The notes: generated by a model from the letters alone, not told the origin. A DNA stretch of 64,000 bases from a virus (IMGVR_UViG_2529292922_000010); one strand, 5' to 3'. Numbered from the stretch's first letter, positions 24,294 to 64,000 are shown. Translations and numbers: made by a program.

Positions 24294-24320
24294 GGATTAC
24301 TGCCAATTTTGCTTACGCTT

Positions 24321-25148
24321 TTATTTCACCGGAACAAACGGAACAGCGGTATTACTGGTCATATACTGCGGTAATGTACCGTTCCATTTGTTGATCGCTT
24401 CCAACTCCATAACACCGGGGTTCTGGCGCAGAGCTTCACCACGTAAACGAATGGCATCAGCTTCGGCCTGGGCTTTTGTGCGAATAGCATCAGCCTGTCC
24501 GGCAGCTTCCGCGCGCAGCATGTTGGCCTCTGCTTCACGTTGTTTGACCTCTTGCTCGCGTTGCAGGGTTTTTTGGTTTGCCGTGACTTTGGCGTTAATA
24601 CTGTCAATAACTGTTGGCGGGTATTCTGGCTTACCTACATAAGAGAGGCTCATCACCTGAATGCCGATTGGCGTCATTTCTTCCTGAATGTCTTTAAGGG
24701 CTGCATCAAGCAATTCGGATTTGCCACCGTCGATAAATTTGTCGGTTGTCATTTTGCTGGCTAACCGGTTCAGAGCATCTGCAACCTTCTGGCGTAGATC
24801 GGTATCAGTAATATCATCTACACCTTTGCGATAGGTCTGAAATACCGTTGTGACTTTTGCTGGATCAACCTTGTAGGCTACGCCGATGTGGTAACCAATG
24901 GTTGTTCCGTCGCTCATCTGGAAGCTGAACGGCTCATCGTATGTCTTCATTTGCTTAAAGGTCGGGAAGATATAAACTTCAGTATTCAAGCCTGTCCAGT
25001 AGCGACCAACGCCAACTACTTCACCGATACCTTTATCATCCCCCAGCTTATTTACTTTGATCCCTACGTTACCTGGCTCTACCCGATCGCATCCGGTCAG
25101 ACATAAAGAACCCAAAATAATCGCTGCACTAATCAACGTTTTTTTCAT
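24321..25148 (-). CDS. plp: SPFH/band-7-like lipoprotein, 275 aa
   Basis: Signal peptide with lipobox LTGC; C-terminal coiled coil. Confidence 0.7.
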   Translation of the reverse strand: MKKTLISAAIILGSLCLTGCDRVEPGNVGIKVNKLGDDKGIGEVVGVGRYWTGLNTEVYIFPTFKQMKTYDEPFSFQMSDGTTIGYHIGVAYKVDPAKVTTVFQTYRKGVDDITDTDLRQKVADALNRLASKMTTDKFIDGGKSELLDAALKDIQEEMTPIGIQVMSLSYVGKPEYPPTVIDSINAKVTANQKTLQREQEVKQREAEANMLRAEAAGQADAIRTKAQAEADAIRLRGEALRQNPGVMELEAINKWNGTLPQYMTSNTAVPFVPVK

Positions 25149-25365
25149 TAATTAATTTCCTGGTTTTTTCACGAAAAAAGACTACTGCGAAAGCTGGGTA
25201 AATGAGCGCGAGAAGGACTCCCAACAATACAAGTATTGTGCTGTTAGATGAGATCATATTTGGCAAAAGCCAAACATACAGAACCAGTGACACAATCAAA
25301 CAGAGGACGGCATAAATATATAACCGCACCCATAGCGTTCGACATTTGTTCGGATTGTTCTGCAT
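25129..25365 (-). CDS. upl: Small two-TM membrane protein, 78 aa
   Basis: Overlaps plp start; position of P1 upl. Confidence 0.55.
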   Translation of the reverse strand: MQNNPNKCRTLWVRLYIYAVLCLIVSLVLYVWLLPNMISSNSTILVLLGVLLALIYPAFAVVFFREKTRKLINEKNVD

Positions 25366-25507
25366 CCTCTCACTCCATTATTTAACGAATAAAAAAGCTG
25401 CGGTGCTGGGTGCCTCCCGGTGTCCTTTGGCTGGTTATCCACCGTGGACGGGGAAACAAGGAGAAATGAATGGACTGATATAACCATTTCCCCGCGTGCG
25501 CTTAGCT

Positions 25508-25596
25508 GCATTCACCGCAACGGAAAGAGCATTCTTGGTGGACCTGTAGATTGGGATATGAACCCGTTACAGGAGAATGCTCTTACCTGTTACGTG
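25508..25596 (-). repeat. tRNA-linked hairpin element E1
   Basis: 13-bp outer stem enclosing GUAACGGGUUCAUAUCCCAAUCUAC core (T-arm-like); ends in CTTACCTGTTACGTG. Confidence 0.5.
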
Positions 25597-25768
25597 CTCC
25601 GTTTCGTGGAGCTAACGGCGGGTGATCGGGCCGCACCAGACTGGACTTATTTCAGCGTTATGCTCATGCCAGAGAATCAAACTGTGATGGTCGGTGCTGA
25701 ACTCCGACACAGGGTTGTAGCAAGCCCCGCAAAGCGCGCACTACTGTAGTTGCGGCACATCAGCCTGT

Positions 25769-25873
25769 GCATTCACCACAATGTTGAGAACACTGGTTGT
25801 CACGCTGCAACGCAACATTTATTCGTAGATTGGGATATGACCCCGTTACGCCAGTGTTCTCAACGTTGTAGTG
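25769..25873 (-). repeat. tRNA-linked hairpin element E2
   Basis: Different 14-bp outer stem (TTGAGAACACTGG/CCAGTGTTCTCAA) around the same core as E1. Confidence 0.5.
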
Positions 25874-26003
25874 CCGGTTACGGTTCCGGCCAGGCCTCTT
25901 CCTCAACGGGGTGTTCTCCATACGGACTACCGTTTATTGGTCGTTCCTGCGGTTTATGTTGTGAAGCCAGATGCTTATCTTCTGGTTGCTTCAAAGAGCT
26001 GCA

Positions 26004-26085
26004 CTTCATCACAACGGTAAGAGCACTCGATGCATTTAAGCCAAGCCCCATAAGGGAGAATGCCCTTACCTGTTGTGTTGTGATG
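26004..26085 (-). repeat. tRNA-linked hairpin element E3
   Basis: CATCACAACGGTAAG...CTTACCTGTTGTGTTGTGATG stem; different loop, no T-arm core. Confidence 0.45.
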
Positions 26086-26197
26086 ACCGGTGCTGATCTC
26101 CGGCTTGCGGTTATTTCAGACTCTCACGGGCGTTTAATTGCCCCGCCGAACAGCTCTTTTCCGCAATAGCTGCAATGTCTTTCGCGCATCAGCCTGC

Positions 26198-26292
26198 GCA
26201 TTCATCACAACGGTAAGGGTACTTCGTAGGGATTCGAACCCTCTGCCAAGCTCGGCGATCTCCGACGTCGCAAAATACCCTTACCTGTTGTG
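26198..26292 (-). repeat. tRNA-linked hairpin element E4 (tRNA-like, non-canonical)
   Basis: 10-bp stem GGTAAGGGTA/TACCCTTACC around AGGGTTCGAATCCCT (canonical T-loop); abuts 3' end of tRNA-Thr; does not fold as full cloverleaf. Confidence 0.5.
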
Positions 26293-26293
26293 C

Positions 26294-26369
26294 TGGTGCC
26301 GATTAACGGACTCGAACCGCTGACATCCTGCTTACAAGGCAGGCGCTCTACCAACTGAGCTAAACCGGC
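26294..26369 (-). tRNA. tRNA-Thr (anticodon UGU)
   Basis: 76 nt, canonical acceptor/D/T arms, ends CCA. Confidence 0.8.
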
Positions 26370-26371
26370 AT

Positions 26372-26447
26372 TGGCGATGGTGGATGGATTTGAACCATCG
26401 ACCCGTTGATTAACAGTCAACCGCTCTAACCGCTGAGCTACACCATC
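26372..26447 (-). tRNA. tRNA-Asn (anticodon GUU)
   Basis: 76 nt, 7-bp acceptor stem, ends CCA; 2 nt upstream of tRNA-Thr. Confidence 0.8.
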
Positions 26448-47434: not shown

Positions 47435-47530
47435 ATCTGATTAGTAAATACACAACTGGATCTAATAACCTCTTTTTTTTAAAGGCGAAAATATGTACCC
47501 TAAATGAGTTATAAGGCAGGTGAGGTTATA

Positions 47531-48178
47531 ATGAGAAAACTATTACTACCGTTATTATTTATGGCTGGGACTGTTAATGCAGCATCAAGCGTAAAGGAGA
47601 TTTGTACCGATTATACGAAATACCTTGGGCACGTTTACGGCTTTGCTGTCAGTCAAGACGAATCCATGCGCAAGAAGTTACTGTCAGATATGAAACGCCT
47701 TAAACTTTCTGAAGCGATGGTGCAGCAAGAACTGTATAAAGTCGCAACCAACGAAAATGCTAAATATCAATATTCTCGCCTGTTAAATCCCGACGCAAAC
47801 GAGATCAATCGAAGCTCTTTCGATTATATGGTAAAGGCATGCGAAACCGCTCCTGATTTTGCTATTCCTAGCTGGGGTGTGCTGGTGGCGAGCAATGCCG
47901 TTAATAAAGAAGACGTTGGAAGAAATGGCATTGATTCAATCAGAAACTCACCGGGAATGCGCCATCAAAACGTTCAGGGTACGCTTGAAGAACGGGCCAG
48001 GGGGCCGGGTACAAACTCCCCAATGGGAAACCTCTCCCCGGAGGAATTGCAAGAGTATAACCAACGGATGGAGCAGTATGAGAAAGCTGCACGCGAAAAA
48101 ATGGAACAACAAAAAAACGGATCTCTTAATACTTTCCAGCAAGGTTTAAAAGCGCTTAATTTACCCTATGAATGGTGA
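47531..48178 (+). CDS. Secreted protein, 215 aa
   Basis: ATG 47531 with GGTGAGG RBS; signal peptide MRKLLLPLLFMAGTVNA; shares a motif with Sit. Confidence 0.5.
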   Translation: MRKLLLPLLFMAGTVNAASSVKEICTDYTKYLGHVYGFAVSQDESMRKKLLSDMKRLKLSEAMVQQELYKVATNENAKYQYSRLLNPDANEINRSSFDYMVKACETAPDFAIPSWGVLVASNAVNKEDVGRNGIDSIRNSPGMRHQNVQGTLEERARGPGTNSPMGNLSPEELQEYNQRMEQYEKAAREKMEQQKNGSLNTFQQGLKALNLPYEW

Positions 48179-48229
48179 ATATATGGTGGTTAACTAATTA
48201 AAATATTAATATCCAAAGGAGATAAATTA

Positions 48230-48706
48230 ATGCGCATCAAACGATTTTTACTAGTTATTGCTTTGCTTACTCCGTTTTCATCAATGGCAAATGTAAGCAA
48301 ATGGTCAACCGGCGAGACTCATGGTGTTCGTTCTTATGCTGTTTCCAGCAAAGATAATTATACGCTTACATTTGAGTGCGATGTTGGATTTAATAATACG
48401 GATCCCAATCAAGTAGGAACACGACTACTCACTCTCATGAAAACAGAACCTGGCGGTGAGTCATTTGATGCTAAAAAAGAACAAATAACGCTGAAAGTTG
48501 GTGATGATGAATATCCTATCAGTTCTATCGGTTCCTCTGTGGGTGATAGTTACTGGTATGGTTTTTGGTCAGATACCCCTGATATGGAAGTTAAAACATT
48601 CGATGCATACGTAGACGGAAAAAAAATCGCAACATTTACGCTACGTAAGGCCGCAGAGCTTTTCAACGCGGCACCTGAAGATGGCTGCCTGAAGCGCGCA
48701 AAATGA
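48230..48706 (+). CDS. Secreted protein, 158 aa
   Basis: Signal peptide MRIKRFLLVIALLTPFSSMA; AAGGAG RBS. Confidence 0.5.
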   Translation: MRIKRFLLVIALLTPFSSMANVSKWSTGETHGVRSYAVSSKDNYTLTFECDVGFNNTDPNQVGTRLLTLMKTEPGGESFDAKKEQITLKVGDDEYPISSIGSSVGDSYWYGFWSDTPDMEVKTFDAYVDGKKIATFTLRKAAELFNAAPEDGCLKRAK

Positions 48707-48740
48707 CCTGTCACAAATGACTACTCGTAGAATCGGTTAA

Positions 48741-49331
<591 letters not shown>

Positions 49332-49341
49332 GGGGGCTGAT

Positions 49342-49953
49342 ATGGGGCTTAATGTTGCTTCAGTAAAGTCTTATGTATCTTCGGCATTAACGACGACATT
49401 ATTTGGCTCCGGCGTTGGTGAGCGGGAAGTTGGTAAGCTGACGTCAATCATCATGAACAAAATGCTGTTCGCGCAAGGATGGCAGTTCTCTGTCGAAGTT
49501 GATGGTCTGGAGGGGGCAGACTTCTTTGCTAAAGACATTACCTACCACGATTACAGCATCGAATATGAAACGATTAAAATCGGCGGAGGGAATATCCTTC
49601 AGCCAACGGAGCGTTCGCCTGGGCAGATAACAATGATGGTCAGGGATACCGTTGATGGCCTCGTTTTGGACTGGTTTAAGACGGCAAAAGGTCGGGTGAT
49701 CAATCCGGACGGTACCGGGAATATACCGTCTAAATATTTGCTCAATGTGCGTATTTATCGGTTGCTGTCCTCCGGTTTAACCAAACTGGAAAATGAGATG
49801 ACGGTATTCCCGGTCACTACCGGCGATGTCACCTATGCGCGGGATCAGGTTACGGAATTTAAGTCATTCCCAATGACCTTCGCATTGCACAGCACGTTTA
49901 ACCAATCCTCAAGTTCTTTAGCTTCCCTTCTGGGCTTTAGTTTTTCTCTTTGA
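49342..49953 (+). CDS. Hypothetical late protein, 203 aa
   Basis: ORF in late operon. Confidence 0.5.
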   Translation: MGLNVASVKSYVSSALTTTLFGSGVGEREVGKLTSIIMNKMLFAQGWQFSVEVDGLEGADFFAKDITYHDYSIEYETIKIGGGNILQPTERSPGQITMMVRDTVDGLVLDWFKTAKGRVINPDGTGNIPSKYLLNVRIYRLLSSGLTKLENEMTVFPVTTGDVTYARDQVTEFKSFPMTFALHSTFNQSSSSLASLLGFSFSL

Positions 49954-49967
49954 ATTAAGGAGCAAGG

Positions 49968-50849
49968 ATGCTTTTACCTCTTTTCCCGCTACCATCGCGG
50001 CCAACTGAATTGATCCAGTTCCGTCAGCCAAATATTGCTGATGCGATGCGTTTCAACTCGATAACACCGGAGGAACAAGAACAACAGACAACGGCGTATT
50101 TAAAAGCCTTGCTGGCTGAACCCGCGAAATATGATCCCCTGACATGGACGGCGCAGGACCGGATTACCGCGTTATGGTGGATATTTACTGGCTCCCGTGA
50201 AACACCGGTCGAGACATTCACCTACACCTGTAAACATTGCGGTAAAGAGCATTATTACGATTGCGATATGAATGCTCTGGCTGAAGATATCCAGGTCCTG
50301 GAAGTGGAACCGTTCATTGACGATATTGAGGTGTCTGTAGAGGGCGTGCCTTATCAATGGCGTATCGTGCCGCTTGATGGTTGGGCAATGGAAATGCTGG
50401 AGATGCGCCGTGCAGCATTGCCACCTGAAGACGACGCGGAATTCAAAGAAGCGATCGTTGATTTGCGTTTTTGGGAATTCGCTTATCAGTGTGAACTTTA
50501 TAACGATGTTAGCGGTACTCGTGAAGAGCAGGCTGAGCGTCGTTATGAAACGATCAAACGGATGGCCATTGATACTGAATTTATGAAGCTGGCGGCACAC
50601 ATCCGGCTGGCTCATGAAAAGCTCGAACATGGTTTACCGTGCTACATCGATAAAGGCGAAATGCGTCTTCGTCTCCCGCCGCACAAATGCCCAAACCAGG
50701 ATACAAAGGAGTCCACAGAGGGTGCGTATACCCGTCTGTGGGTGCCCTTTCGGGCTACCGACTTCATTCCACAGGTGGGGATTGAAAAGCTATCAGACCT
50801 TAGTGTCCAACCTGGTTTTGTATGGGGGTATACCGATTCAGGACGCTGA
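49968..50849 (+). CDS. Hypothetical late protein with CxxC pairs, 293 aa
   Basis: AAGGAG RBS; CKHCGK...CDM; immediately upstream of sit. Confidence 0.5.
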   Translation: MLLPLFPLPSRPTELIQFRQPNIADAMRFNSITPEEQEQQTTAYLKALLAEPAKYDPLTWTAQDRITALWWIFTGSRETPVETFTYTCKHCGKEHYYDCDMNALAEDIQVLEVEPFIDDIEVSVEGVPYQWRIVPLDGWAMEMLEMRRAALPPEDDAEFKEAIVDLRFWEFAYQCELYNDVSGTREEQAERRYETIKRMAIDTEFMKLAAHIRLAHEKLEHGLPCYIDKGEMRLRLPPHKCPNQDTKESTEGAYTRLWVPFRATDFIPQVGIEKLSDLSVQPGFVWGYTDSGR

Positions 50850-50930
50850 AAGGCTCACTGAATCCTATGCGTTTTTCCTGTTGGAGAAACTGGAAGAAAA
50901 ACTTAAACCGAAGCGGTAGGCGATAAGATC

Positions 50931-53900
50931 ATGGAAAGAAAAAACGCCAACATTGACGATGTGATAAGGACGGTTGAAACCGCCAGCGCAAAAGAGCTGG
51001 AAGAGCTTGCAGGTATTCGGGAAGCCGTTGAAGATTTGAAAGGTGGGCGAGTTGCTACAGTTGATCCTGTCTCTCGCAGTGTGTCGGCATTAAATCGCAC
51101 AATCGAAAATTCCCGGCCAGACTTTGTGGCCAATGCGCCATCAGTGGACCCTATTGTTGAGGCAATGAAACGGCTTAATTTAGGGGACGTTTCTCGTGTA
51201 GTTCAGGAGGATGTTGCTCTACAGGAACCGCAGGCCAAATCAACTACGCGAAAGGGTAAAAAACGACGCAAGAAGGCTATAACAGAAGATGTAAAGGCGC
51301 AACGGACCGAAGCAGCCGAACACGCTCGCGAAATGTTCGGTCAAAAAGGCGGTGCGCAAAAAAGCCAAAACCAACGCGATGCGCGTGGTCGTTTTATTGG
51401 AAAGTCAGGGAGTAAGGCCGCAGCGGAAGATGCCCGTGCTGAACGTGCTGAAAAGGCCAGGCGCAAAGAGGATGATGAGCGTCTAAATGCTGAATCAGGT
51501 TTATTAAAAAAACTGTCAAAAGTAGCTGAAGGCATAGGTAACCCTTCAGAGACTCGTGCCGTCGATGCGTTAGGTTATGCCGTTGCTGGTCCATTGTGGG
51601 CAGCAGGGAAGGAGCTTGGCGGGATATCAAAAGAAGTTGGTGGATCGCTTAATGGTGCCAGAAAGTCTATTGCCGATGTGATTCGTGGCAATGACGATAA
51701 CAGCCGTAGAAAAGGTTTTTTTAGGCGTAAATCGCAAAATAGTGCCGATGTCGTTCAGGTTAACACCCAAAAACGGACGGTTCAGGAACTTCAGGAGCAG
51801 ACCAGCGAAATTAAAGAGGGCAATGACAAGATTCTCCGCGCCCTTGATCAGATAGCCAAAAACACCGGGAAAAAGAAGGGCGGCTTGCTGTCCAAACTAT
51901 TTAGCCTGTTAGGGAAGGGGGCCGGTGGCGTCGCGTCGTTGTTAATGGGGCGTGGCATGCTGAAAAAAGCTGGAGCACTCGCTTTTGGCGCTCTGGGGGC
52001 AAAGAAACTTGTAGGAATGCTACGCGGTGGTGGCAAGAAGACTCTCGCCCATGAAGGCGGAGATTTGGCTGCCCGGGCAGCAGGTAAACTTGGATTAAAG
52101 GCAGTTGGTAAAGGGGCGTTACGCGCAATTCCCCTAGTCGGCACAGTGGCTGGAGGTATTTATGATGCGGTAACCGGTTGGAATGATACAGAAGCGCAAC
52201 GTCGAGCGTTTGGGCTTAAATCAGGACAAGATCCATCATTCCAGCAAAAAGCCGCTTATACGTTAGCTAATGTTCTTGATATGGGGGGACTGGTATCTGG
52301 TATTAGCAGCGCCATTGGTGAGGTTCTCAAATCACTTGGATTTGAGGATATCGGCAATATGTTGCAATCATTTTCGACGGAAAGTATTGCCCAGGCCATT
52401 GATAGTGGGATTACCAACTTAGAAACATATATTTCTAACCTTGGCGACACCATTTCTACCAAGTTCGATGATTACACAGCAAAGATTGGTGATGCTGTTT
52501 CAGCATGGTTTAGCGATACATCTAATAAGCTGCTTGAAAAGCTGGATGCCATCAAAGACTTCTTTACTGTCGATAACCTGAAACAGGTTTTCAGTGATGC
52601 AATTGATAGTGCAATTGATTTCATTAAGAACCCAGGGAAACATATTAAAGAGGCGGCTGGTAATATTTGGGATGGGGTTAAAAATTTCCCCGGTAAAGCA
52701 TTAGATGCAGCGGTTGATGCCGTTAAAAATACCCCTGCGGCAATGATTGTATCAAAAATACCCAATCCGATCGGCGAGGCTAATGCGAAAGAAATCACTC
52801 CAGAGTTAAAAGCTCCGGTTAATAGCCACCAGGAGACATCTGATTCTAAAACTGAATCCGATGCCAAACAGACTAATATTGTTACCCGCGTGATAAATGC
52901 GGCACTGGACACGGCGAAAGATAGCAATAAAACAGTTAAAGAAACTGCTAATCAGATTATCAATGCAAATGCCGTAGAAACGGGCAATAGCGCGTTGCAG
53001 AAAATTGATAAAGCTATTGGTCAAAATAGCTCGTCATCATCGTCGCTTAATACCACTGGCACCAGGAATGACATTCAGAAAGCTGCGGATACCTACAACA
53101 ATGGCAACTTGGATGTAAAAGTCGGAAGTCTTGGCGCTGAAGGTAAGGCAAATCTCGATAAGTTGGCTCCGTATTTTGCCGAACTAGAGAATAAATACGG
53201 TCTTCCAGAAGGCACTCTTTACGCGATTGCTGCAACTGAATCTGGTGGTAATCCGTATGCAAAATCCCAAACCGGTGCTCTGGGGATGTTTCAGTTCACG
53301 GGGATTGCTCGTGAAGAGACTGGCTTAGCTGAAGGTGAATCGTTTGATCCTGTGAAATCGGCAGAAGCTGCGGCTCTTCTCATGAGCAAATATCTGAAGC
53401 AAGCCAATGGAGACTTAAACGAGGCCATCACTGCATATAATGCTGGGTTTGGCACTATCAATAAGTGGAAAAAAGGCACAGGTGACTTATCGAAAGAAAA
53501 CCGTGAGTACGCGATCAAGGTCAATACTCATCGTGCTCGCTATTTAGGTGGTGAAATCTATACACCTGGAGCAGGAGCACAGGGTGGGGCGCAATATGGA
53601 GTGAGGGGACCACTGCCTGATAACGCTGTTATCGATCAGTCTACTGGCCTGGCGTTTACCCCTGGTGATAGCCCGTTTGAGAAAGGCGGTCTGGTAGACA
53701 AAATTGGCAATGCTGTTGGCGTTAACGATCTGGTCAACAAATTCATGAATGGCCGGGGTATGCGTCGGGAAGTCGTTCAGGGAACGCTCGAAGAACGTGC
53801 ACGAGGGAAGGGGACCGCAACAGCAGCTGGCAATGTGTATGTTGATACTCCGATGCCAGTTGAAGAGGCGCGTCCGGTGGCCAGCAACTCAAGTTACTTT

Positions 53901-54323
53901 GACCAACTCGGCGCACAAATGGGGATTGATGGACTATTTGATAAACTCCGCAACTCGCCGGGGATGCGGAAAAATAATGCGCCTGAACCAGCCTCCACGT
54001 CCCAGGTGACGACTGCCGCCAACGATTTGCAGCAACCAACCGGTCGTATGCAGATAGACGGACAGGTTATTAGTGACCTTGGCGGCTCCGGTGCCAAGCC
54101 GACAATGCAGTTGGCTGATAATACCGTTTCACTTGATGGTGAAACGAAGCGGCTGTTTGCGCAGATGACCTCATTGCTTGCCAGGATTGAAGAGCACACT
54201 AAAGACTCGGCGAAAGGCCAGGGAACTGTCGTAAAGGTCAGCACGCCTCAACCGGGCGTTATGCGCACGGTGCCACTGTCAATTGATGATCCGTTGATGA
54301 ATGACTACGCGAGAGTTGATTGA
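50931..54323 (+). CDS. sit: Sit-like tape-measure / injection transglycosylase
   Basis: 1130 aa; internal lytic transglycosylase motif (AIAATESGGNPYA...GALGMFQF...YNAG). Confidence 0.8.
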   Translation: MERKNANIDDVIRTVETASAKELEELAGIREAVEDLKGGRVATVDPVSRSVSALNRTIENSRPDFVANAPSVDPIVEAMKRLNLGDVSRVVQEDVALQEPQAKSTTRKGKKRRKKAITEDVKAQRTEAAEHAREMFGQKGGAQKSQNQRDARGRFIGKSGSKAAAEDARAERAEKARRKEDDERLNAESGLLKKLSKVAEGIGNPSETRAVDALGYAVAGPLWAAGKELGGISKEVGGSLNGARKSIADVIRGNDDNSRRKGFFRRKSQNSADVVQVNTQKRTVQELQEQTSEIKEGNDKILRALDQIAKNTGKKKGGLLSKLFSLLGKGAGGVASLLMGRGMLKKAGALAFGALGAKKLVGMLRGGGKKTLAHEGGDLAARAAGKLGLKAVGKGALRAIPLVGTVAGGIYDAVTGWNDTEAQRRAFGLKSGQDPSFQQKAAYTLANVLDMGGLVSGISSAIGEVLKSLGFEDIGNMLQSFSTESIAQAIDSGITNLETYISNLGDTISTKFDDYTAKIGDAVSAWFSDTSNKLLEKLDAIKDFFTVDNLKQVFSDAIDSAIDFIKNPGKHIKEAAGNIWDGVKNFPGKALDAAVDAVKNTPAAMIVSKIPNPIGEANAKEITPELKAPVNSHQETSDSKTESDAKQTNIVTRVINAALDTAKDSNKTVKETANQIINANAVETGNSALQKIDKAIGQNSSSSSSLNTTGTRNDIQKAADTYNNGNLDVKVGSLGAEGKANLDKLAPYFAELENKYGLPEGTLYAIAATESGGNPYAKSQTGALGMFQFTGIAREETGLAEGESFDPVKSAEAAALLMSKYLKQANGDLNEAITAYNAGFGTINKWKKGTGDLSKENREYAIKVNTHRARYLGGEIYTPGAGAQGGAQYGVRGPLPDNAVIDQSTGLAFTPGDSPFEKGGLVDKIGNAVGVNDLVNKFMNGRGMRREVVQGTLEERARGKGTATAAGNVYVDTPMPVEEARPVASNSSYFDQLGAQMGIDGLFDKLRNSPGMRKNNAPEPASTSQVTTAANDLQQPTGRMQIDGQVISDLGGSGAKPTMQLADNTVSLDGETKRLFAQMTSLLARIEEHTKDSAKGQGTVVKVSTPQPGVMRTVPLSIDDPLMNDYARVD

Positions 54324-54679
54324 TGGCCAACAATAACGAAATTGATCCTTTGCTGACGCTGGAGTTATCCGGCGTAAAAACGTATGAGTCCCAGGAGGAG
54401 GCCTGGGGCGCTCGTTTATATGAGTGGCTAAACACTTATCAGGGTGAGGTATACGGAGATCCGTCATGGGGCAATGTTTTACCGCAGTTTAAACACGAAC
54501 CGACCAACTTGTCGCATGTTCAAATTGCGGTTGAGGCAATGCTTTTGCAAAAACTGACGGTAGATTTACCCGACATACCGATTTCTGGCTTGTCAGTAGC
54601 CGAGGGAGATGCTTTTGATAAGTTGAAAATATCCATTCGTATCAGGGATATAACTATCACACAGGACGTGGTGCTATGA
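54320..54679 (+). CDS. Baseplate wedge gp25/gpW-like protein, 119 aa
   Basis: Size and position right after tape measure; start overlaps sit stop. Confidence 0.5.
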   Translation: MMANNNEIDPLLTLELSGVKTYESQEEAWGARLYEWLNTYQGEVYGDPSWGNVLPQFKHEPTNLSHVQIAVEAMLLQKLTVDLPDIPISGLSVAEGDAFDKLKISIRIRDITITQDVVL

Positions 54680-56109
54680 GTAAAACAACACCTACTAAAG
54701 ACAGTATTCGTGCAGAGTTTGAAGAGCTTGTCGAGAAAGATTCATTCTGGTCGAAGTTTGTCGGCTCTCAATTTGTCTCGATGCTGACATTGTTTATTAC
54801 CCAGATTGTCTACAGGTGCTTTCAGTATGCCGATGCGGCGCTGGCTGAAGGCTTTATATCGACCGCGACGCGGCGTTCTTCTATCCTGGCAGCGGCAGAA
54901 ACGAATAGTTACGTTGGTACCAAGCCAACACCGTCATCGGGGATGATTGAGATCACCGCCACAAGTGAAGATGCCCCAGCGGTAATCCCCAAAAATATGC
55001 CTTTAATATCTGACGACCAGTATCCTTACATGACTATGGATGTATGCAGGTTGGTTGACGGCACCGGTACGGTAGAAGTGGCACAGTTGGAAATCCAGGA
55101 GGTGACATATACCGTTACGGCAGCCAAAGAATTTCTGGAAGTCGTGTTATCAAAGGCTCTCACTGCTGTCTGCTATAAGCTGGAAGTATTCGTGACGACC
55201 GATGGTAAGACCACGCAGTGGTCTTCCAGCACTATGTTCCGGTTAGCCGGTAGTAAAAGCCAGGTCTACGTTGAGTTTTATAAACCATCCGAGCAGTTGG
55301 GGGTTCGATTCGGTGATGGGCTAATTGGGCAAATACCGCCAGAAGGCTCGACCATTACGCTTAAGGTATGGTGCACCAACGGCGATATAACCCTGGTTGC
55401 TGGCCAAAACCTGACGCCTGTCGATTCTGCGGCTAATTTAGCTAATTTGATTTCAGTTAAGACAACGACACCTATAACCGCAGGTACCGATGCCGAAACA
55501 ACGGAGATCACACGTAACCGTGCACAATATTACCTTGCCTATGATGATCAGGTCGTATGGGGCGGGGACTATACGTATTTTCTGGTGCGTAACATCCCGG
55601 GACTGTCCTGGGTAAAGGCATGGGGCGAAGGCCAGCAAGAGAAATTAGATGGTGCTTATAATGTTCGGAATATCAATAAGATATTTATTTCAGGATGGCA
55701 TCCAAACAAAAGCCAGTCAGAGCTTGAAGAAATGATCCTGGCTGCCTTTAAGAAGGTGCCGAATGAGTTGAACAAGAAATTCTCGTATAAAGAGGTCAGA
55801 AAACTCCCCTTTAAGATCACCATCACTGGGCGGATATCGGCAAGCCTGACCATTGAGAACGTGACTGATGAGCTGAAGTCGGCACTGGAAACAAAATTTG
55901 GGCGTGACTCAACTTTCTTTGATCCGAACCGTGTCGGCAAGTACATCCTAATCAAGAAAAAAGACGTTTGGGCATTTATCGAAACGCTGGGTTATTTCCG
56001 CGACTTTTATCTGGAATTTGTCGAGTGGAATGAGTCCAACGGCTTTTACGATTTCGTTTATCTGGATACAGAAAACTCCACCTTTAATATTTCGTATGAG
56101 GAGGAGTGA
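54676..56109 (+). CDS. Baseplate J-like protein, 477 aa
   Basis: Size and position; overlaps neighbours by 4 nt. Confidence 0.5.
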   Translation: MSKTTPTKDSIRAEFEELVEKDSFWSKFVGSQFVSMLTLFITQIVYRCFQYADAALAEGFISTATRRSSILAAAETNSYVGTKPTPSSGMIEITATSEDAPAVIPKNMPLISDDQYPYMTMDVCRLVDGTGTVEVAQLEIQEVTYTVTAAKEFLEVVLSKALTAVCYKLEVFVTTDGKTTQWSSSTMFRLAGSKSQVYVEFYKPSEQLGVRFGDGLIGQIPPEGSTITLKVWCTNGDITLVAGQNLTPVDSAANLANLISVKTTTPITAGTDAETTEITRNRAQYYLAYDDQVVWGGDYTYFLVRNIPGLSWVKAWGEGQQEKLDGAYNVRNINKIFISGWHPNKSQSELEEMILAAFKKVPNELNKKFSYKEVRKLPFKITITGRISASLTIENVTDELKSALETKFGRDSTFFDPNRVGKYILIKKKDVWAFIETLGYFRDFYLEFVEWNESNGFYDFVYLDTENSTFNISYEEE

Positions 56110-56945
56110 TGCAGCGTTCCTGGTTTAATAACCGGCTTACATCAGCTAAGCAAAAGTCATTACTTTATAAATCATTGGCTGATTTGGTTCAGTCAATGAT
56201 GGACACCTTTGTTGACCCATGGTTGGAGCGAATTACCAACCGGAAGTCTATTTTCTCCATGAGCAAGGAGGATCTGGAGACTAGGACAAATGAACTTGGC
56301 CAGTTTTTTACTATCAGAACGTCGAATTCATCTTCCGTTCCGATGTTGTTACAACAGCGGTTTGATGAGATCCATTTTAAGGGTACTGAACGCCCTATAA
56401 ACCAGACAATTTATCGCGAATTTAACGGTATATCGGTTTTATGGGATCCCATATATGCTCCGGTGGACTTTGAACGTCATCCCTATGGCACGGTCCTGAT
56501 TCCAGAAAGCACACTGGAAACCACCGGCGGCACATTCGGCGAGATGTTTCTGACTTCCAGAGGAATGATCAGTATTCCCATAAACGACCTGGCCCGGACA
56601 ATGGGTATTACTGGAACGATAGATCAGTCCGCAATTACAGAAGAAATTCTCAGAAAGTTTAATCAGTTCGTAAAGCCTCTACTGCCACTGCATATAGTGT
56701 TTGATGGGCTTACGCTCTATTTGTCGGTTGTTGTAAATGAACAGGCCGACATGATCACTTTGAATGAGATTTCTGATACCGAAAAAGCATTCTGCTGGTT
56801 TGAAACTTCGGATACAACTTCGCTTACTGAAGTTACGTCGATTAACGCCCCGATCACTGCAACGCCGGGCGGCACTATTGTGAAAGCAACGCCTACGTTT
56901 GATCGCACCCGCGCAGATGATTTGCTGTTGGATAGCGATGCGTGA
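56106..56945 (+). CDS. Baseplate/tail-fibre-associated protein, 279 aa
   Basis: Translationally coupled to upstream gene. Confidence 0.45.
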   Translation: MMQRSWFNNRLTSAKQKSLLYKSLADLVQSMMDTFVDPWLERITNRKSIFSMSKEDLETRTNELGQFFTIRTSNSSSVPMLLQQRFDEIHFKGTERPINQTIYREFNGISVLWDPIYAPVDFERHPYGTVLIPESTLETTGGTFGEMFLTSRGMISIPINDLARTMGITGTIDQSAITEEILRKFNQFVKPLLPLHIVFDGLTLYLSVVVNEQADMITLNEISDTEKAFCWFETSDTTSLTEVTSINAPITATPGGTIVKATPTFDRTRADDLLLDSDA

Positions 56946-57023
56946 CAATCACCCCGTCCGCAGGGCGGGGTGACAAGTTACTTATCTTACAATGAGGCTT
57001 CACAACATTGATTAGGGAAAATC

Positions 57024-57458
57024 ATGTCTGACGTCTCAACAAACCTCTATAAGAGTCAGTTGTTGGACTATTACTATCAGCGGCGCGCTGAATCGTCCAT
57101 TAACAAAGGCTCTCGATTTTTAATCAGCAAGGCCGTTTTCGGTACCAGTTCACTGGTTACTAAGAAAGGAGATGGCACTTATGAGATTGGAGAACTGCCA
57201 AAGGCTTTCGATCTGGCAGAACTGACCAGTCAATTTTGCACCATCAACCTCGTCCCAACCTACTCAGGCGGGATAATTACTGTCCGAATGGACCTTGATC
57301 AAAGTCAGTTGCAGGAAGGGAAAAACTACCCATTCAACACTCTGGTTGTTCTGGATAACGAGAATAAGCCAATCGCCATTATTTGTGTCCAGGAAGACTC
57401 GCTGTATGTGGGCAAAACATATACCGCAGTTATGGCCATAAACTCGACTACAGCATAA
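57024..57458 (+). CDS. Small tail protein upstream of fibre gene, 144 aa
   Basis: Position of P1 gene R. Confidence 0.45.
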   Translation: MSDVSTNLYKSQLLDYYYQRRAESSINKGSRFLISKAVFGTSSLVTKKGDGTYEIGELPKAFDLAELTSQFCTINLVPTYSGGIITVRMDLDQSQLQEGKNYPFNTLVVLDNENKPIAIICVQEDSLYVGKTYTAVMAINSTTA

Positions 57459-57469
57459 GGATATGCTTG

Positions 57470-59326
57470 ATGAATGACGTTACAGTTGTTACATCGGTTA
57501 CTTACCCATCACCCGAGTCGTTGGCTCTGGTGGCTGATGTGCAATACCACGAACCATATCTGTCAGCCGCTCTAAACCGAAAATTCAGGGGAATTGTTGA
57601 CCCGGGATTTTATGCTGGTTTCTTGCCTAAGCCTGGCGGTGGGATGAACCTGTTAATCACCTCAGTGGATGGAGATAAAACCGCTGGCGCGGCGTCAGTG
57701 GATATTGGTGAATTCTACCAGGTAACTATTCAGCATCGTAAGGATATCTCTCTTGCACTTAACGCAGGCAAGAAATATGCAATTGTGCTGAAGGGAAGAT
57801 ACCTTCTTGGAGAAGATACCTATCAGGTTAATACCGCGTCACATATTCATGCAGCTGAATTTGTTGCCAGAACCTATACCGATTCATATCAGTTAGGTGA
57901 TGGGGAACTGCTGGTTTGTACGGTGAATATCCCTGCTGGCGTATCTACCATTACTCAAGAGATGATTGATACATCCGAGCGTATCAACCGCACGATCGGC
58001 ATTGATATTTCAGACTCTGTAACCAGTACCAGAAGTGATGTTGCTGCGAGTTCGCTGGCAGTTAAAAAAGCCTACGATCTGGCGAAAAGCAAGTATACGG
58101 CGCAGGATGCAACCACGACACAAAAAGGGATAGTTCAGCTCAGTAGCGACACCAACAGCACTTCTGAAACATTAGCTGCAACTCCAAAAGCGGTTAAAGC
58201 TGCATACGATCTAGCAGCCGGAAAGGCACCATCCAGTCATACACATCCCTGGAATCAGATCACTGGTGTGCCAACAGCTTCATTGACAGCGAAAGGCATC
58301 ACTCAGCTCAGTAGTGCCACTAACAGTACGTCCGAAGTGCTGGCCGCCACACCGAAAGCTGTCAAGGCTGCATATGATTTGGCTAACGGGAAGTATACAG
58401 CCCAGGATGCAACCACGACACAAAAAGGGATAGTTCAGCTCAGTAGCGACACCAACAGCACTTCTGAAACATTAGCTGCAACTCCAAAAGCGGTTAAAGC
58501 TGCATACGATCTAGCAGCCGGAAAGGCACCATCCAGTCATACACATCCCTGGAATCAGATCACTGGTGTGCCAACAGCTTCATTGACAGCGAAAGGCATC
58601 ACTCAGCTCAGTAGTGCCACTAACAGCACGTCTGAAGTGCTGGCCGCCACACCGAAAGCTGTCAAGGCTGCATATGATTTGGCTAATGGAAAGCAAGCGG
58701 CAGACGCTACGCTCACTGCTCTAGCGGCACTAGCTACAGCAGCAGATAAACTCCCTTATTTCACAGGTGTTGATCGTGCCGCGTTAACTGCATTGACAAG
58801 TGTTGGACGCGCCATTCTTGGTAAGACCAGTATTCAGAGCGTTCTTGATTACCTTGGTTTAGGGGAAGGCTCGGCGCTGCCCGTTGGTGTACCTGTTCCA
58901 TGGCCCTCAGCCACACCGCCAACGGGGTGGCTGAAATGCAATGGTGCAGCATTTTCTTCTGAAAAGTACCCAAATCTGGCAAAGGTTTACCCTACTAATA
59001 AATTGCCGGATCTACGGGGCGAATTTATTCGCGGCTGGGATGACGGGCGGGGGATTGACTCTGGCCGTAATTTATTATCTGCACAGAATGATGCAATTCA
59101 GAATATTGTTGGTTCTTTCGGGCGTACTCAGCTTTTTAGAGATGTACTTAGTTCAGGGCCATTTAGTCAACATGGTCAAGTATTATCTACAGGCCTAAAG
59201 GAAACGGAAATTATTGAGGGTTATGGCTCTTATAACTGGACATTCGACGCCTCTCGCTCAGTTCGTACAGCATCTGAAACCCGCCCCCGTAATATTGCAT
59301 TTAATTACATCGTAAGGGCGGCATAA
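57470..59326 (+). CDS. Tail fibre protein (constant shaft + currently expressed cassette 1)
   Basis: 618 aa from ATG 57470; repeated GIxQLSS.TNSTSE.LAATPKAVKAAYDLA motifs; receptor-binding cassette 1 occupies 58853-59326. Confidence 0.8.
   Translation: MNDVTVVTSVTYPSPESLALVADVQYHEPYLSAALNRKFRGIVDPGFYAGFLPKPGGGMNLLITSVDGDKTAGAASVDIGEFYQVTIQHRKDISLALNAGKKYAIVLKGRYLLGEDTYQVNTASHIHAAEFVARTYTDSYQLGDGELLVCTVNIPAGVSTITQEMIDTSERINRTIGIDISDSVTSTRSDVAASSLAVKKAYDLAKSKYTAQDATTTQKGIVQLSSDTNSTSETLAATPKAVKAAYDLAAGKAPSSHTHPWNQITGVPTASLTAKGITQLSSATNSTSEVLAATPKAVKAAYDLANGKYTAQDATTTQKGIVQLSSDTNSTSETLAATPKAVKAAYDLAAGKAPSSHTHPWNQITGVPTASLTAKGITQLSSATNSTSEVLAATPKAVKAAYDLANGKQAADATLTALAALATAADKLPYFTGVDRAALTALTSVGRAILGKTSIQSVLDYLGLGEGSALPVGVPVPWPSATPPTGWLKCNGAAFSSEKYPNLAKVYPTNKLPDLRGEFIRGWDDGRGIDSGRNLLSAQNDAIQNIVGSFGRTQLFRDVLSSGPFSQHGQVLSTGLKETEIIEGYGSYNWTFDASRSVRTASETRPRNIAFNYIVRAA
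58091..58690 (+). repeat. Near-perfect tandem duplication (2 x 300 bp) in fibre shaft
   Basis: 58091-58390 and 58391-58690 nearly identical; encodes duplicated 100-aa shaft module. Confidence 0.8.
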
Positions 59327-59813
59327 AAACGTTGGTTTGGGGGAAGGCTCAGCATTGCCCGTTGGCGTGCCCGTTCCGTGGCCCTTAGAAACACCGCCAA
59401 CGGGGTGGCTGAAATGTAACGGAGCAGCATTTTCTTCTGAAATGTATCCCAAACTGGCAAAGGCCTACCCCACCAATAAATTACCGGATTTACGGGGAGA
59501 ATTTATTCGCGGCTGGGATGATGGGCGCGGGGTGGATGCGGGACGTGCTTTATTGAGCATTCAGACAGGAATGCTGGAAAAGCACCGACATATTGTTGTA
59601 GCCAATGATGGTTACGACACAAAAGATGAATGGGAGCTGGCGACAATTTTCAAAAAAACATACACACAAGGACGGGGGCTTGATGCCTCAAATACAGGAG
59701 GGAATTTGATTCCATCACCGACACTTCATTCTCGAGGGAGTATTGGTAATACTGGCGGGAGTGAAACCCGTCCACGAAATATCGCATTTAATTACATCGT
59801 AAGGGCGGCATAA
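59327..59813 (+). other. Silent tail-fibre C-terminal cassette 2 (intact frame)
   Basis: Begins with junction AAACGTTGGTTTGGGGGAAGG, ends ETRPRNIAFNYIVRAA-stop; 5' 200 bp identical in type to inverted cassette 9. Confidence 0.7.
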
Positions 59814-60290
59814 AAACGTTGGTTTAGGGGAAGGCTCGGCGCTGCCCGTTGGTGTACCTATTCCATGGCCCTCAGCCACACCGCCAACGGGGTGGCTGAA
59901 ATGTAACGGTGCAGCATTTTCTCTGAAAAGTACCCAAATCTGGCAAAGGTTTACCCCACTAATAAATTGCCGGATCTACGGGGCGAATTTATTCGCGGCT
60001 GGGATGACGGGCGGGGGATTGACTCTGGCCGTAATTTATTATCTGCACAGAATGATGCAATTCAGAATATTGTTGGTTCTTTCGGGCGTACTCAGCTTTT
60101 TAGAGATGTACTTAGTTCAGGGCCATTTAGTCAACATGGTCAAGTATTATCTACAGGCCTAAAGGAAACGGAAATTATTGAGGGTTATGGCTCTTATAAC
60201 TGGACATTCGACGCCTCTCGCTCAGTTCGTACAGCATCTGAAACCCGCCCCCGTAATATTGCATTTAATTACATCGTAAGGGCGGCATAA
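59814..60290 (+). pseudogene. Cassette 3, frameshifted near-copy of cassette 1
   Basis: 1-bp deletion (TTCTTCTG to TTCTCTG); variable region identical to cassette 1. Confidence 0.65.
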
Positions 60291-60764
60291 AAACGTTGGT
60301 TTGGGGGAAGGCTCAGCATTGCCTGTTGGCGTACCTGTTCCGTGGCCCTCAGCCACTCCGCCAACGGGGTGGCTGAAATGTAACGGAGCAGCATTTTCTT
60401 CTGAAAAGTACCCAAATCTGGCAAAGGCTTACCCTACTAATAAATTGCCGGATTTACGCGGTGAATTTATTCGTGGCTGGGATGACGGACGTGGTGTGGA
60501 TGCCGGGCGACAATTATTATCTTCACAGGGGGAGTGCAATAAGAAATATTGAGGGGTTCGCAGATGGCGGGATTGGCATGTCTTTTGATGCAATCAGAGG
60601 GCGTTTTTATGATGCAGGAACACGATCTGCGAGAATGCCGAATAACACAACTGATATAGGCAAACCGATGACCTTGGATTCGACGCCTCTCGTGTCGTGC
60701 CAACAGCTAATAGAAAACCGTCCTCGTAATATTGTCCTTTAATTATATCGTAAGGGCGGCATAA
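60291..60764 (+). pseudogene. Cassette 4, multiply frameshifted copy of the cassette-10 type
   Basis: Premature stop at 60550 and further indels; intact counterpart is the inverted cassette at 63825-64000. Confidence 0.65.
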
Positions 60765-61277
60765 AACGTTGGTTTAGGGGAAGGCTCGGCGCTGCCCGTT
60801 GGTGTACCTGTTCCATGGCCCTCAGCCACACCACCAACGGGGTGGCTGAAATGCAATGGTGCAGCATTTTCTTCTGAAAAGTACCCAAATCTGGCAAAGG
60901 TTTACCCAACGTTAAAATTACCTGATTTACGCGGTGAATTTATCCGTGGCTGGGATGATGGGCGCGGGGTGGATGCTGGCCGCGCTTTGCTTAATTGGCA
61001 GCCACACACAATTTTGGACCATGCACACTATATGGAATTATGGACAGGGGACGGACTCGCCGCAGGAAGTGCACGGGAAGGCGTAAATCCAGGAATACTA
61101 GCTACATACGGTGACGGGGGAATAGTTAAAACGGACGAACCCGGTCATAAGGTGCCTTCCTCACTACGAGCTATTAGCTCTCGTAGTGTTAAACGTTATG
61201 GTGAAATTAGTGGAAATGTAGGTACAGAAACTCGCCCTCGCAACGTTGCATTTAATTACATCGTAAGGGCGGCATAA
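60765..61277 (+). other. Silent tail-fibre C-terminal cassette 5 (intact frame)
   Basis: Open frame from junction to RPRNVAFNYIVRAA-stop. Confidence 0.65.
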
Positions 61278-61790
61278 AAACGTTGGTTTAGGGGAAGGCT
61301 CGGCGCTGCCGTTGGTGTGCCTGTTCCGTGGCCCTCCGCCACACCACCAACGGGGTGGCTGAAATGTAACGGAGCAGCATTTTCTTCTGAAAAGTACCCA
61401 AATCTGGCAAAGGTTTACCCAACGTTAAAATTACCTGATTTACGCGGTGAGTTTATCCGTGGTTGGGATGATTCGAGAGGGATTGATACAGGGCGTTCAT
61501 TGCTAAGTGGTCAGACTGCAACATTTATTCGTACAGCTTTGCAGGATTATTACGGTGTCGATCTGACTACTAATGTCAAAGTAGGTATCGCTTATGCTAC
61601 TGCTGATTCTGTTATAACTGTTGGAAACCCTGCTAATCCTAAAGCAGGAGATAATAGCGATTATGTTCCAGCATCATCAGATAACTCCATAACAGGCACT
61701 CAAAGGACGGCAGAGGATAATTTTACCGGGGCATGGATATCAATGCGCCCCCGCAACGTTGCTTTTAATTACATTGTAAGGGCCACATAA
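61278..61790 (+). pseudogene. Cassette 6, frameshift at 5' conserved region
   Basis: 1-bp deletion (GCTGCCCGTTGG to GCTGCCGTTGG); rest open. Confidence 0.6.
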
Positions 61791-62230
61791 AAACGTTGGT
61801 TTAGGGGAAGGCTCGGCGCTGCCCGTTGGTGTACCTGTTCCATGGCCCTCCGCCACACCACCAACGGGGTGGCTGAAATGTAACGGAGCAGCATTTTCTT
61901 CTGAAAAGTACCCAAATCTGGACAAAGGTTTACCCCACTAATAAATTGCCGGATCTACGGGGCGAATTTATTCGAGGTTGGGATGATGGACGAGGTGTGG
62001 ACAATGGGCGAGCATTATTAAGCAGCCAAGAGGCTACAAACTTTTCTCAGCGTGCCGGAAATATAGGCGATGGTGCAGGGCACGCAATTAATTTTCATGA
62101 TGGCATCGTCGGAAATCAGCCAGGATTTTCACGATTTAATTTCACCAGTAACTCTGTAGGTGATGGTATAAATTTTGTTGCTGTCAGGCCGCGAAATATC
62201 GCATTTAATTACATCGTAAGGGCGGCATAA
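61791..62230 (+). pseudogene. Cassette 7, frameshift in 5' conserved region
   Basis: 1-bp insertion (CTGGCAAAGG to CTGGACAAAGG). Confidence 0.6.
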
Positions 62231-62737
62231 AAACGTTGGTTTAGGGGAAGGCTCGGCGCTGCCCGTTGGTGTACCTATTCCATGGCCCTCAGCCACACCG
62301 CCAACGGGGTGGCTGAAATGCAATGGTGCAGCATTTTCTTCTGAAAAGTACCCAAATCTGGCAAAGGTTTACCCAACGTTAAAATTACCTGATTTACGCG
62401 GTGAGTTTATCCGTGGCTGGGATGATGGGCGAGGGATTGACTCTGGTCGCTCTATTTTAAGCGAGCAAGGATATGCAACGGAGGATCATGCTCACGGATT
62501 ACCGTCAAAATCAACCGTAGCAACTGACCGCTCAATTAATTTCTACTTTGACGAGGCATGGGCTACTAGTGGTAATACGGGAGTTATCAGATGGGGGAAC
62601 ACAAGCGATGCAGGATTGCCAGCCCCTAATTATGGAACTTTTAAAACATATAAACAGTCCGTAGCTAATTTAGGTACTGCTGGCTTAGAAACCCGCCCTC
62701 GTAATATTGCATTTAATTATATTGTGAGGGCGGATTA
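62231..62737 (+). other. Silent tail-fibre C-terminal cassette 8 (intact frame)
   Basis: Open frame from junction to RPRNIAFNYIVRAD-stop. Confidence 0.65.
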
Positions 62738-62743
62738 ATTATA

Positions 62744-63355
62744 TCAACTGGCTGTAGAAAGTTGTTTTTCAGGCCAGTTGAGAACTGGTGCCGTGGTTAA
62801 ATCCATCGCGTTCAGCTCGTCTATATAATCTAGCACGGAGTTAAGCTGCGTGGTTTCTGCCTGCGTCAACTTCCGTCCAGCCCGTAATTTCAACTGAATC
62901 AGACTAATGGAATCCATCGCAGTATCAATCAATGACTGACGTTTTGTTTCTGCTGCCTCTACAGCTGCACTATGTTGAGCCTCAGTATCAACCACCCATT
63001 TCTCTCCATCCCATTTGTCGTATGGTGTTAGCGGGGCGATAGTGGTTGTATTTTCCGGATAGTCACCCAACACCGTGATTTCTTCGGGATTCCCAGTGTC
63101 AATGCTATAGACAGTTTCGCCACGATGATCTGGCACATACTCCCATGAACTTAAATCCTCTGAACGGAGAATCGCATAACCTGCTTTATGTGAGCCTGGA
63201 GCATCCAAACAAGAATTTGCCGGAATACCAACGCCAACAGCAAGATATTCAGTTGATGCAGAAATATATTCCCGATTACCACCATCATAGTTATAAACGA
63301 TAATGTTTCCTGCCTGTATGGCTATAAGTTCGCTATTTAATATCGCATTATCCAT
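62744..63355 (-). CDS. Tail-fibre assembly (Tfa/U-type) chaperone
   Basis: 203 aa with Tfa-family pattern; start overlaps stop of inverted cassette 9; convergent with cassette 8. Confidence 0.7.
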   Translation of the reverse strand: MDNAILNSELIAIQAGNIIVYNYDGGNREYISASTEYLAVGVGIPANSCLDAPGSHKAGYAILRSEDLSSWEYVPDHRGETVYSIDTGNPEEITVLGDYPENTTTIAPLTPYDKWDGEKWVVDTEAQHSAAVEAAETKRQSLIDTAMDSISLIQLKLRAGRKLTQAETTQLNSVLDYIDELNAMDLTTAPVLNWPEKQLSTAS

Positions 63356-63824
63356 TATGCTGCTCTCACAATATAATTGAAGGCAATGTTACGTGGGCGG
63401 GTTTCATTCCCCCCAGATAACTCCGTTCTGTATTGACTGGTAAATTTACCATTAATCGCTCCTTGCCGGACGGCGTTATCTGTCGACAACAGACTATCCC
63501 CCCCTCTGTCATTTGGCACCAATACCGTGTTATCCCACGCGTCCCATGACCGAATATTATGATAATGACTTCCTGTTAACCACCCCTGTATGCTTAAGAT
63601 GACCCTTCCCGCATCCACACCTCGCCCATCATCCCAACCACGGATAAACTCACCGCGTAAATCCGGTAATTTATTGGTGGGGTAGGCCTTTGCCAGTTTG
63701 GGATACATTTCAGAAGAAAATGCTGCACCATTGCATTTTAGCCAGCCCGTTGGTGGTGTTTCTAAGGGCCACGGAACGGGCACACCAACAGGCAGTGCAG
63801 AGCCTTCCCCCAAACCAACGTTTT
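63355..63824 (-). other. Inverted tail-fibre C-terminal cassette 9 (intact)
   Basis: Minus-strand GEGSALPVGVPVPWPLETPP...ETRPRNIAFNYIVRAA; same junction motif at its 5' end. Confidence 0.7.
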
Positions 63825-64000
63825 TATGCCGCCCTTACGATATAATTAAAGGCAATGTTACGAGGACGGTTTTCATTAGCTGTTGGCACGACACGAGAGG
63901 CGTCGAATCCAAGGTCATCGGTTTTGCCTATATCAGTTGTGTTATTCGGCATTCTCGCAGATCGTGTTCCTGCATCATAAAAAGCCCCTCTGATTGCATC
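63825..64000 (-). other. Inverted cassette 10, 3' part only (window ends)
   Basis: Minus strand ends ...ENRPRNIAFNYIVRAA-stop; intact version of decayed cassette 4. Confidence 0.6.

Follow-up and report, generated by a model that had tools for sequence, protein, structure and literature searches.

An array of exchangeable tail-fibre tips on a P1/P7-type phage-plasmid with the features of a Min-type multiple DNA-inversion region

We analyzed the tail-fibre locus at the right end of a 64,000-nt stretch of viral DNA (IMGVR_UViG_2529292922_000010, in the following called the window), in which the fibre gene S is followed by an array of alternative 3' ends. The window represents a P1/P7-type phage-plasmid, with R, S and the upstream baseplate genes being ca. 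95-99% identical to those of P1, P7 and many E. coli IncY-type plasmids. Gene R lies directly 5' of the fibre gene (Table 1), and its syntenic counterpart in a related contig (L032, see below) carries the Pfam domain Phage_P1_tail_fiber_R. The constant part of S (Sc) contains five Phage_fiber_2 repeats, is ca. 95% identical to Sc of P1 and P7, and is fused in frame to the first alternative end, with the shaft sequence ...DYL/GLGEGS... reading directly into cassette c1. From the TT dinucleotide at 58854-58855 onwards, a repeat with a period of 440-514 nt sets in, forming a family of 8 copies plus inverted copies. The array thus delimited (58842 to the window end) consists of the shaft, eight plus-strand cassettes, a convergent tfa gene and two minus-strand cassettes, separated by nine 26-bp junction sites. 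This is the layout that had been proposed for the locus in an earlier sequence-only reading, and it was recovered in full, including all cassette coordinates, from repeats, sites and open reading frames (ORFs). We conclude that the region very probably constitutes a multiple DNA-inversion region of the Min type on a p15B/P1-like phage-plasmid, and that this switch is real and probably functional.

Each cassette codes for ca. 155 residues, in which a variable middle lies between a conserved collar head and a conserved tail ending in ...RPRNIAFNYIVRAA, with an N-terminal Phage Tail Collar domain present in every case. Comparison with the tip structure of T4 gp37 (2XGF) gave a match with E = 1e-17, located at the head and at the C-terminal ...NIAFNYIVR.A end of the cassette. 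In the published gp37 structure both chain ends reportedly pack together next to the shaft, leaving the middle as the distal part that binds the receptor, an arrangement that would account for the conserved-variable-conserved layout of the cassettes. Typing of the variable cores yielded the order A B A' C' D E F G, tfa, H C, and type A is the tip expressed in the recorded isomer. The ten segments represent only eight types, since c3 is a second copy of c1 (type A) and c4 repeats type C, which is also present as the inverted c10. When each cassette was translated, six of the ten (c1, c2, c5, c8, c9 and the visible part of c10) were found to be open in the fibre frame. The earlier claim of at least ten receptor-binding cassettes therefore stands as a count of segments but not as a repertoire of ten tips, given two duplicates, four frameshifted cassettes and eight types.

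Table 1 Genes, cassettes and crossover sites of the tail-fibre locus, in window coordinates
Feature	Coordinates	Strand	Description	Support
Gene R	57024..57458	+	P1-type tail-fibre structure/assembly protein, directly 5' of fibre gene	ORF; R in P1/P7 matches
Sc	57470..58855	+	Constant part of tail-fibre gene S, start codon to TT core of first site	
Shaft-side fixed site	58842..58867	+	TTCTTGATTACC-TT-GGTTTAGGGGAA; TT core 58854-55	25/26 to p15B mixQ''R'
c1	58856..59326	+	Type A, intact, fused in frame to shaft, expressed tip	Collar domain
Internal mix-type site	59320..59345	+	GGCATAAAAACG-TT-GGTTTGGGGGAA; left half carries c1 stop codon, right half encodes first c2 codons; TT core 59332-33	
c2	59334..59813	+	Type B, silent, intact	Identical to type B of L008
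Internal mix-type site	59807..59832	+	TT core 59819-20	26/26 to p15B mixO''P' and mixP''Q'
c3	59821..60290	+	Second type A copy (99%), 1-nt deletion, frameshifted as sequenced	
Internal mix-type site	60284..60309	+	TT core 60296-97	25/26
c4	60298..60764	+	Second, degraded type C copy, frameshifted	
Internal mix-type site	60757..60782	+	1-nt deletion in left-half A-run (AAAA for AAAAA), directly after indel-rich c4; TT core 60769-70	
c5	60771..61277	+	Type D, silent, intact	
Internal mix-type site	61271..61296	+	TT core 61283-84	26/26
c6	61285..61790	+	Type E, frameshifted by 1-nt deletion in C-run at codon 9	
Internal mix-type site	61784..61809	+	Left half CACATAAAAACG (type E 3' end); TT core 61796-97	25/26 to p15B mixN''O'
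c7	61798..62230	+	Type F, frameshifted by 1-nt insertion	
Internal mix-type site	62224..62249	+	TT core 62236-37	26/26
c8	62238..62738	+	Type G, intact; left member of invariant hinge block G> tfa< H<	
tfa	62744..63355	-	Only tail-fibre assembly chaperone gene of array; in hinge, co-oriented with cassette H	Pfam Caudo_TAP 1e-28; PHROG 105
c9	63355..63816	-	Type H, intact; right hinge member, would be one inversion from expression, tfa then following	
Inverted mix-type site	63805..63830	-	Only window site able to pair with the eight plus-strand sites; TT core 63817-18	
c10	63824..64000	-	Type C, 3' part only, cut by end of source contig	

The junctions between the cassettes are marked by a 22-nt motif, AAAACGTTGGTTTRGGGGAAGG, which occurs in 8 copies (seven on the plus and one on the minus strand) compared with 0.00 expected from 100 shuffles, and is absent from the rest of the 64 kb; a chance repeat is ruled out by these numbers. 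At the shaft junction only the right half of the motif is kept, as the sequence-only reading had already pointed out, and the TT core falls in the Leu codon of ...DYL/GLGEG... there. Six mix sites of p15B have been defined experimentally (PMC3241671, Table 3). As reverse complements, these include GGCATAAAAACG-TT-GGTTTAGGGGAA and CACATAAAAACG-TT-GGTTTGGGGGAA as well as TTCTTGATTACC-TT-GGTTTGGGGGAA on the shaft side and AAGACTAAAACG-TT-GGTTTGGGGGAA on the invertase side (PMC3241671). Eight of the nine window sites are identical to published mix sites at 25-26 of 26 positions, each being composed of one published left half and one published right half, the exception being the site at 60757-60782 with its 1-nt deletion. 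If real, this deletion would shift the spacing of the half-sites and might disable the site. The window sites can further be aligned with cixL and cixR as annotated in P1, where the annotated crossover point is the same TT. The locus had been assigned to the Hin/Gin/Cin/Min family of multi-site tail-fibre tip arrays on the basis of its dyad-like junctions, an assignment that is borne out by the mix-site identity, the alignment with P1 cix and the permutations seen in relatives.

The sites serve a double coding duty, with the left half holding the stop codon of the upstream cassette and the right half encoding the residues G-L-G-E of the next one. Both orientations are present, eight plus and one minus in the window, and relatives additionally have a fixed terminal minus-strand site beside the invertase gene. 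The left half of the shaft site was found once in 13 of the 14 typed arrays, window included, and the left-half marker CACATAAAAACG travels with type E in relatives. The exact site was also detected in 16 IMG/VR contigs, mostly short fragments that gave no information in addition to the plasmid records.

The exact 618-aa fibre protein was found in two contigs, AIEX01000036.1 (GCA_000249095.2) and L032 (GCA_012777275.1). AIEX01000036.1 is a whole-genome shotgun (WGS) contig of 68,145 nt, the last 16,531 nt of which are identical to positions 47470-64000 of the window. The window corresponds to the last 64,000 nt of this contig, which stops at position 64000 inside cassette C. The record offers no sequence past this point, where the sequence-only reading had proposed to look for a serine invertase and further cassettes, and an invertase gene would have to be located on a different contig. 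L032, a 94.5-kb WGS contig, carries the complete locus in the order S/A C B E I D G, tfa, H, F with nine unique and intact cassettes. At a distance of 68 nt past its terminal site, L032 encodes a 190-aa protein in which Resolvase and HTH_7 domains are recognized, and lysis genes come next. The invertase of the relatives is 74% identical to P1 Cin, and the 5' region of its gene, which lies outside the window, agrees with the enhancer annotated in P1 cin at 58 of 72 positions. An invertase gene adjoins every complete array typed, albeit in truncated form in one of them (L001), and an intact 190-aa invertase is encoded in most relatives.

Arrays were typed in 13 relatives (12 plasmid records and the WGS contig L032), giving 14 arrays together with the window. 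The relatives share largely the same nine types, A to I, in differing orders. With a slash marking the tfa hinge, the order is F D A I E B G / H C in plasmid pMCR_SCKP-LL83 (L008), G / H C I B A E D F in pS13-1 (L003), H / G E D B I C F A in pD72-mcr1 (L030) and A C B E I D G / H F in L032. Throughout the arrays, the half-sites next to the shaft and next to the invertase do not change, G and H always face each other across tfa, all cassettes left of the hinge point right and all those right of the hinge point left. A breadth-first simulation of inversion between plus and minus sites reproduces exactly these rules, with the number of arrangements following (n-2)! x (n-1) x 2, i.e. 240 for six sites, 80,640 for nine and 725,760 for ten. 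For p15B, six variants and 240 isomers were reportedly described by Sandmeier et al. Further, the 3'-end markers ...CACATAA (type E) and ...CATGA (type I) stay with the upstream cassette and the downstream cassette varies, which indicates that exchange is confined to ca. 14 bp around the core.

The clearest pair of natural isomers is formed by pS13-1 and pD72-mcr1, both 96,320 bp in size and obtained from pigs in Henan, with backbones that are 99.88% identical. Between these two plasmids a 5,281-bp hinge block is inverted core to core, with 99.98% identity and no chimeric cassette heads. Both plasmids carry ISApl1-mcr-1 inserted within the G-tfa-H hinge block (L003 23400-27100 and L030 23100-26900). 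This places the colistin-resistance gene within the invertible segment, and its orientation is reversed between the two plasmids.

Based on these data, we propose that a Cin-like serine invertase (Min) would pair a plus with a minus site and exchange strands at the central TT, such that the segment between the paired sites flips. Such flips would preserve two convergent arms around the fixed hinge G> tfa< H<, and any cassette could be brought in frame behind the shaft, those of the minus arm (here H and C) by one inversion and those of the plus arm by two. This plasmid presumably still inverts, and the reaction would be expected to depend on Fis and an enhancer. The region sets the receptor-binding tip displayed by a P1-type phage-plasmid and would thereby affect which enterobacterial strains can be infected; from the p15B and P1 literature, tip exchange may be expected to change host range.

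A number of observations weigh against this interpretation. No invertase gene is present in the 64-kb window (tblastn with the invertase of the relatives, no match at E<=10), in line with the sequence-only reading, which had likewise seen none in the window. Among the relatives, the invertase is truncated in pGPEC128-620c (L001 11565-11894) and split into two ORFs, annotated as Hin1/Hin2, in phage vB_EcoM-673R5 (L002 7491-8062), suggesting that not all such arrays can be switched by an enzyme of their own. Cassettes c3, c4, c6 and c7 are frameshifted as sequenced by 1-nt indels. The tfa gene is antisense to the fibre operon in this isomer, and a promoter and terminator scan of 57000-64000 gave results at or below chance. 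Finally, two haplotypes of the cassette head exist, and their combination with the cassette types varies from plasmid to plasmid, so that homologous exchange or gene conversion must also act on the array.

Several of these points bear on the alternatives that we considered, the strongest of which concerns the number of cassettes only and not the nature of the system. Here, the order and count of ten cassettes with A and C present twice would be an artefact of draft assembly from a repetitive array that probably held mixed isomers, and the real plasmid would carry nine cassettes, A to I. We judge this somewhat better than an even chance. The draft contig stops inside cassette C, type I is absent from the window, and the nine cassettes of L032, which encodes the identical fibre protein, are all unique and intact and include type I. 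Using the near-identical cassettes of L008 as a reference, types B, G and H were identical, D showed two substitutions, and E and F each showed one indel and nothing else. In total, 7 indels were found in the ca. 5-kb array compared with 3 in 12 kb of backbone, and about 5 of these 7 are length changes in runs of identical bases. The duplicate copies c3 and c4 are among the four indel-bearing cassettes. Relative to canonical type C, c4 has 4 indels and 2 substitutions (a CG/GC swap), whereas the other copy, c10, shows 100% identity over the compared part with type C as found in L001, L003, L004 and L008. Mixed tail-fibre isomers are known to give spurious contigs and artefactual duplications, and a discrepancy of 20 indels between 454 and PacBio data has been reported for such a fibre region (PMC4134206). 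Against an artefact stands the finding that c3 differs from c1 not only by one deletion but also by four substitutions in the head. Duplicates are likewise seen in assemblies labelled complete (L007, L029 and L004), where real unequal exchange is possible. Overall, the additional A and C copies and likewise the four frameshifts probably stem from draft assembly, and the true content of this array is probably the usual nine cassettes.

It is also conceivable, though we hold it to be the less probable case, that the duplications are real and that Min arrays, in addition to inverting, grow and shrink (6-17 cassettes) and trade heads and cores between plasmids and prophages. Growth and shrinkage would then proceed via unequal exchange at mix sites or cassette heads. 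Duplicates of this kind require a process other than inversion, because inversion cannot change copy number. They occur in L029 (E B E B), in L007, where B is present four times and N three times among 17 cassettes, and also in L004, and at least 15 cassette types were counted over the 14 arrays. If this were true, the array would be an open-ended store of fibre tips, going beyond the closed six-way switch of p15B. The repeats in L007 (NZ_CP135665.1, 2700-11700) and L029, both labelled complete, may reflect unequal exchange or mixed isomers merged in assembly. A separate observation was made in L004 (NZ_LR882977.1, 1-750), where an extra mix-type site and a partial type D lie ca. 2.9 kb beyond the invertase and lysis genes; this site outside the normal array could result from a larger rearrangement or an assembly problem.

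A frozen relic, in which the invertase is lost or defective and the silent cassettes decay in the absence of switching, is unlikely. The four frameshifted cassettes together with one altered site, the truncated or split invertase of some relatives and the lack of a visible invertase gene in this contig would fit such a scenario. However, substitutions are almost absent where indels occur, which is better explained by sequencing error than by decay, and most relatives possess the intact enzyme. Invertases of this family can moreover act in trans from other prophages (PMC4134206).

Very improbable, in our view, is the possibility that the rearrangements result from RecA-dependent homologous recombination between the 200-270-nt conserved heads, with the junction motif being mere conserved coding sequence. 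The heads do form long inverted repeats of 83-87% identity, their haplotypes are reassorted (e.g. type A in the window, L001 and L005 compared with L003, L004 and L008, with the shaft-fused type I of L004 as a further reassorted head), and copy-number changes are impossible by inversion alone. Yet left of the core the shaft has no homology with the 3' ends of the cassettes, the 5.3-kb inversion that distinguishes L003 from L030 shows a single mismatch without chimeric heads, markers on either side of the core segregate independently within ca. 14 bp, the sites equal experimentally defined mix sites, and a dedicated invertase gene is found by every complete array (truncated in L001).

With a Min-type inversion region as the preferred interpretation, its size can be put into context. 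The array had been thought unusually large for a P1-type backbone, a view that did not hold: array sizes range from 6 to 17 sites with a median of 9 in the 13 typed relatives, and array matches are present in 238 PLSDB plasmid records. Related cassettes occur in 2,136 of 5,426 complete E. coli genomes. Such elements carry resistance genes, e.g. mcr-1, located inside the invertible block in the two relatives described above. The arrays are also of practical concern, as they break draft assemblies and attract indel errors, and because of possible spurious duplications cassette counts from drafts are not to be trusted.

Two further features of the window were recorded. The fibre shaft contains a 300-nt tandem duplication (58070-58369 / 58370-58669, 96% identity) that is not found in the otherwise ca. 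98.7% identical L008, meaning that shaft length differs between close relatives. Three tRNA genes (Met-CAT, Thr-TGT and Asn-GTT) are located on the minus strand at 24218-26447, the same set (Asn, Thr, Met) as reported for pMCR_SCKP-LL83.

Among known systems, T4 gp37 has a single fixed tip of ca. 240 residues with a long needle, in contrast to the exchangeable cassettes of ca. 155 residues described here. The Rin shufflon of Bifidobacterium prophages likewise equips a receptor-binding protein with several alternative C-terminal cassettes but uses a tyrosine recombinase, 11-bp rix sites and proteins unrelated to those of the window (PMC6109161). The same publication terms Min a shufflon-like multiple inversion system (PMC6109161). 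In case of the R64 shufflon (Rci, IncI1), multi-site inversion also permutes 3' ends behind one constant gene, yet Rci is a tyrosine recombinase acting on sfx sites, the target is the PilV adhesin of a conjugative pilus, and the sequences are unrelated to the window. An Rci-type tyrosine-recombinase shufflon is ruled out, as the sites are Din-type and the enzyme of the relatives is a serine recombinase (Resolvase, HTH_7).

P1 Cin and Mu Gin belong to the same serine invertase subfamily as the enzyme of the relatives, as indicated by its identity with Cin, and share with the window homologous 26-bp sites, crossover at the same central dinucleotide and the swapping of fibre 3' ends. P1 and Mu differ in having two sites, two states and one chaperone gene (U or U') per alternative, whereas the window array combines many sites with one tfa and has much shorter, gp37-like tips. 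In addition, P1 cin converges on its segment and overlaps cixL, and the invertase gene of the relatives points away from the array. A two-state C segment of the P1 type is ruled out by the nine sites, the single tfa and the lack of a U/U' pair.

A 5-kb Min-like segment has already been reported on a P7-like mcr-1 plasmid (PMC5786510), whose array end is 99.8% identical to the right end of the window. For the nine-cassette form as such, our literature search, whose scope did not extend to subscription journals, found no describing paper. What novelty remains lies in whether array size truly changes by duplication and deletion; beyond this, the array raises no new biological question relative to those settled by the work on p15B Min, which was reportedly carried out by Sandmeier, Iida, Arber and co-workers in 1990-1992.

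The system itself is already known: it is the Min system of p15B (E. coli 15T-) and is ordinary for this plasmid family. Both have the same 26-bp half-sites, with the 1-nt deletion at one window site as the only departure from near-complete identity, and the same fixed shaft-side half-site mixQ''R', and the relatives of the window share the invertase-side mixMl''L'. Both likewise combine a constant 5' fibre part with alternative 3' ends on a P1-related backbone, and the same inversion model, with 240 isomers at six sites, applies to p15B. The only difference is a larger number of sites, as p15B has six sites in ca. 3.6 kb (PMC3241671, Table 4) compared with nine sites and ten segments in the window and commonly nine in its relatives, and having more sites than p15B is the usual state of these arrays.

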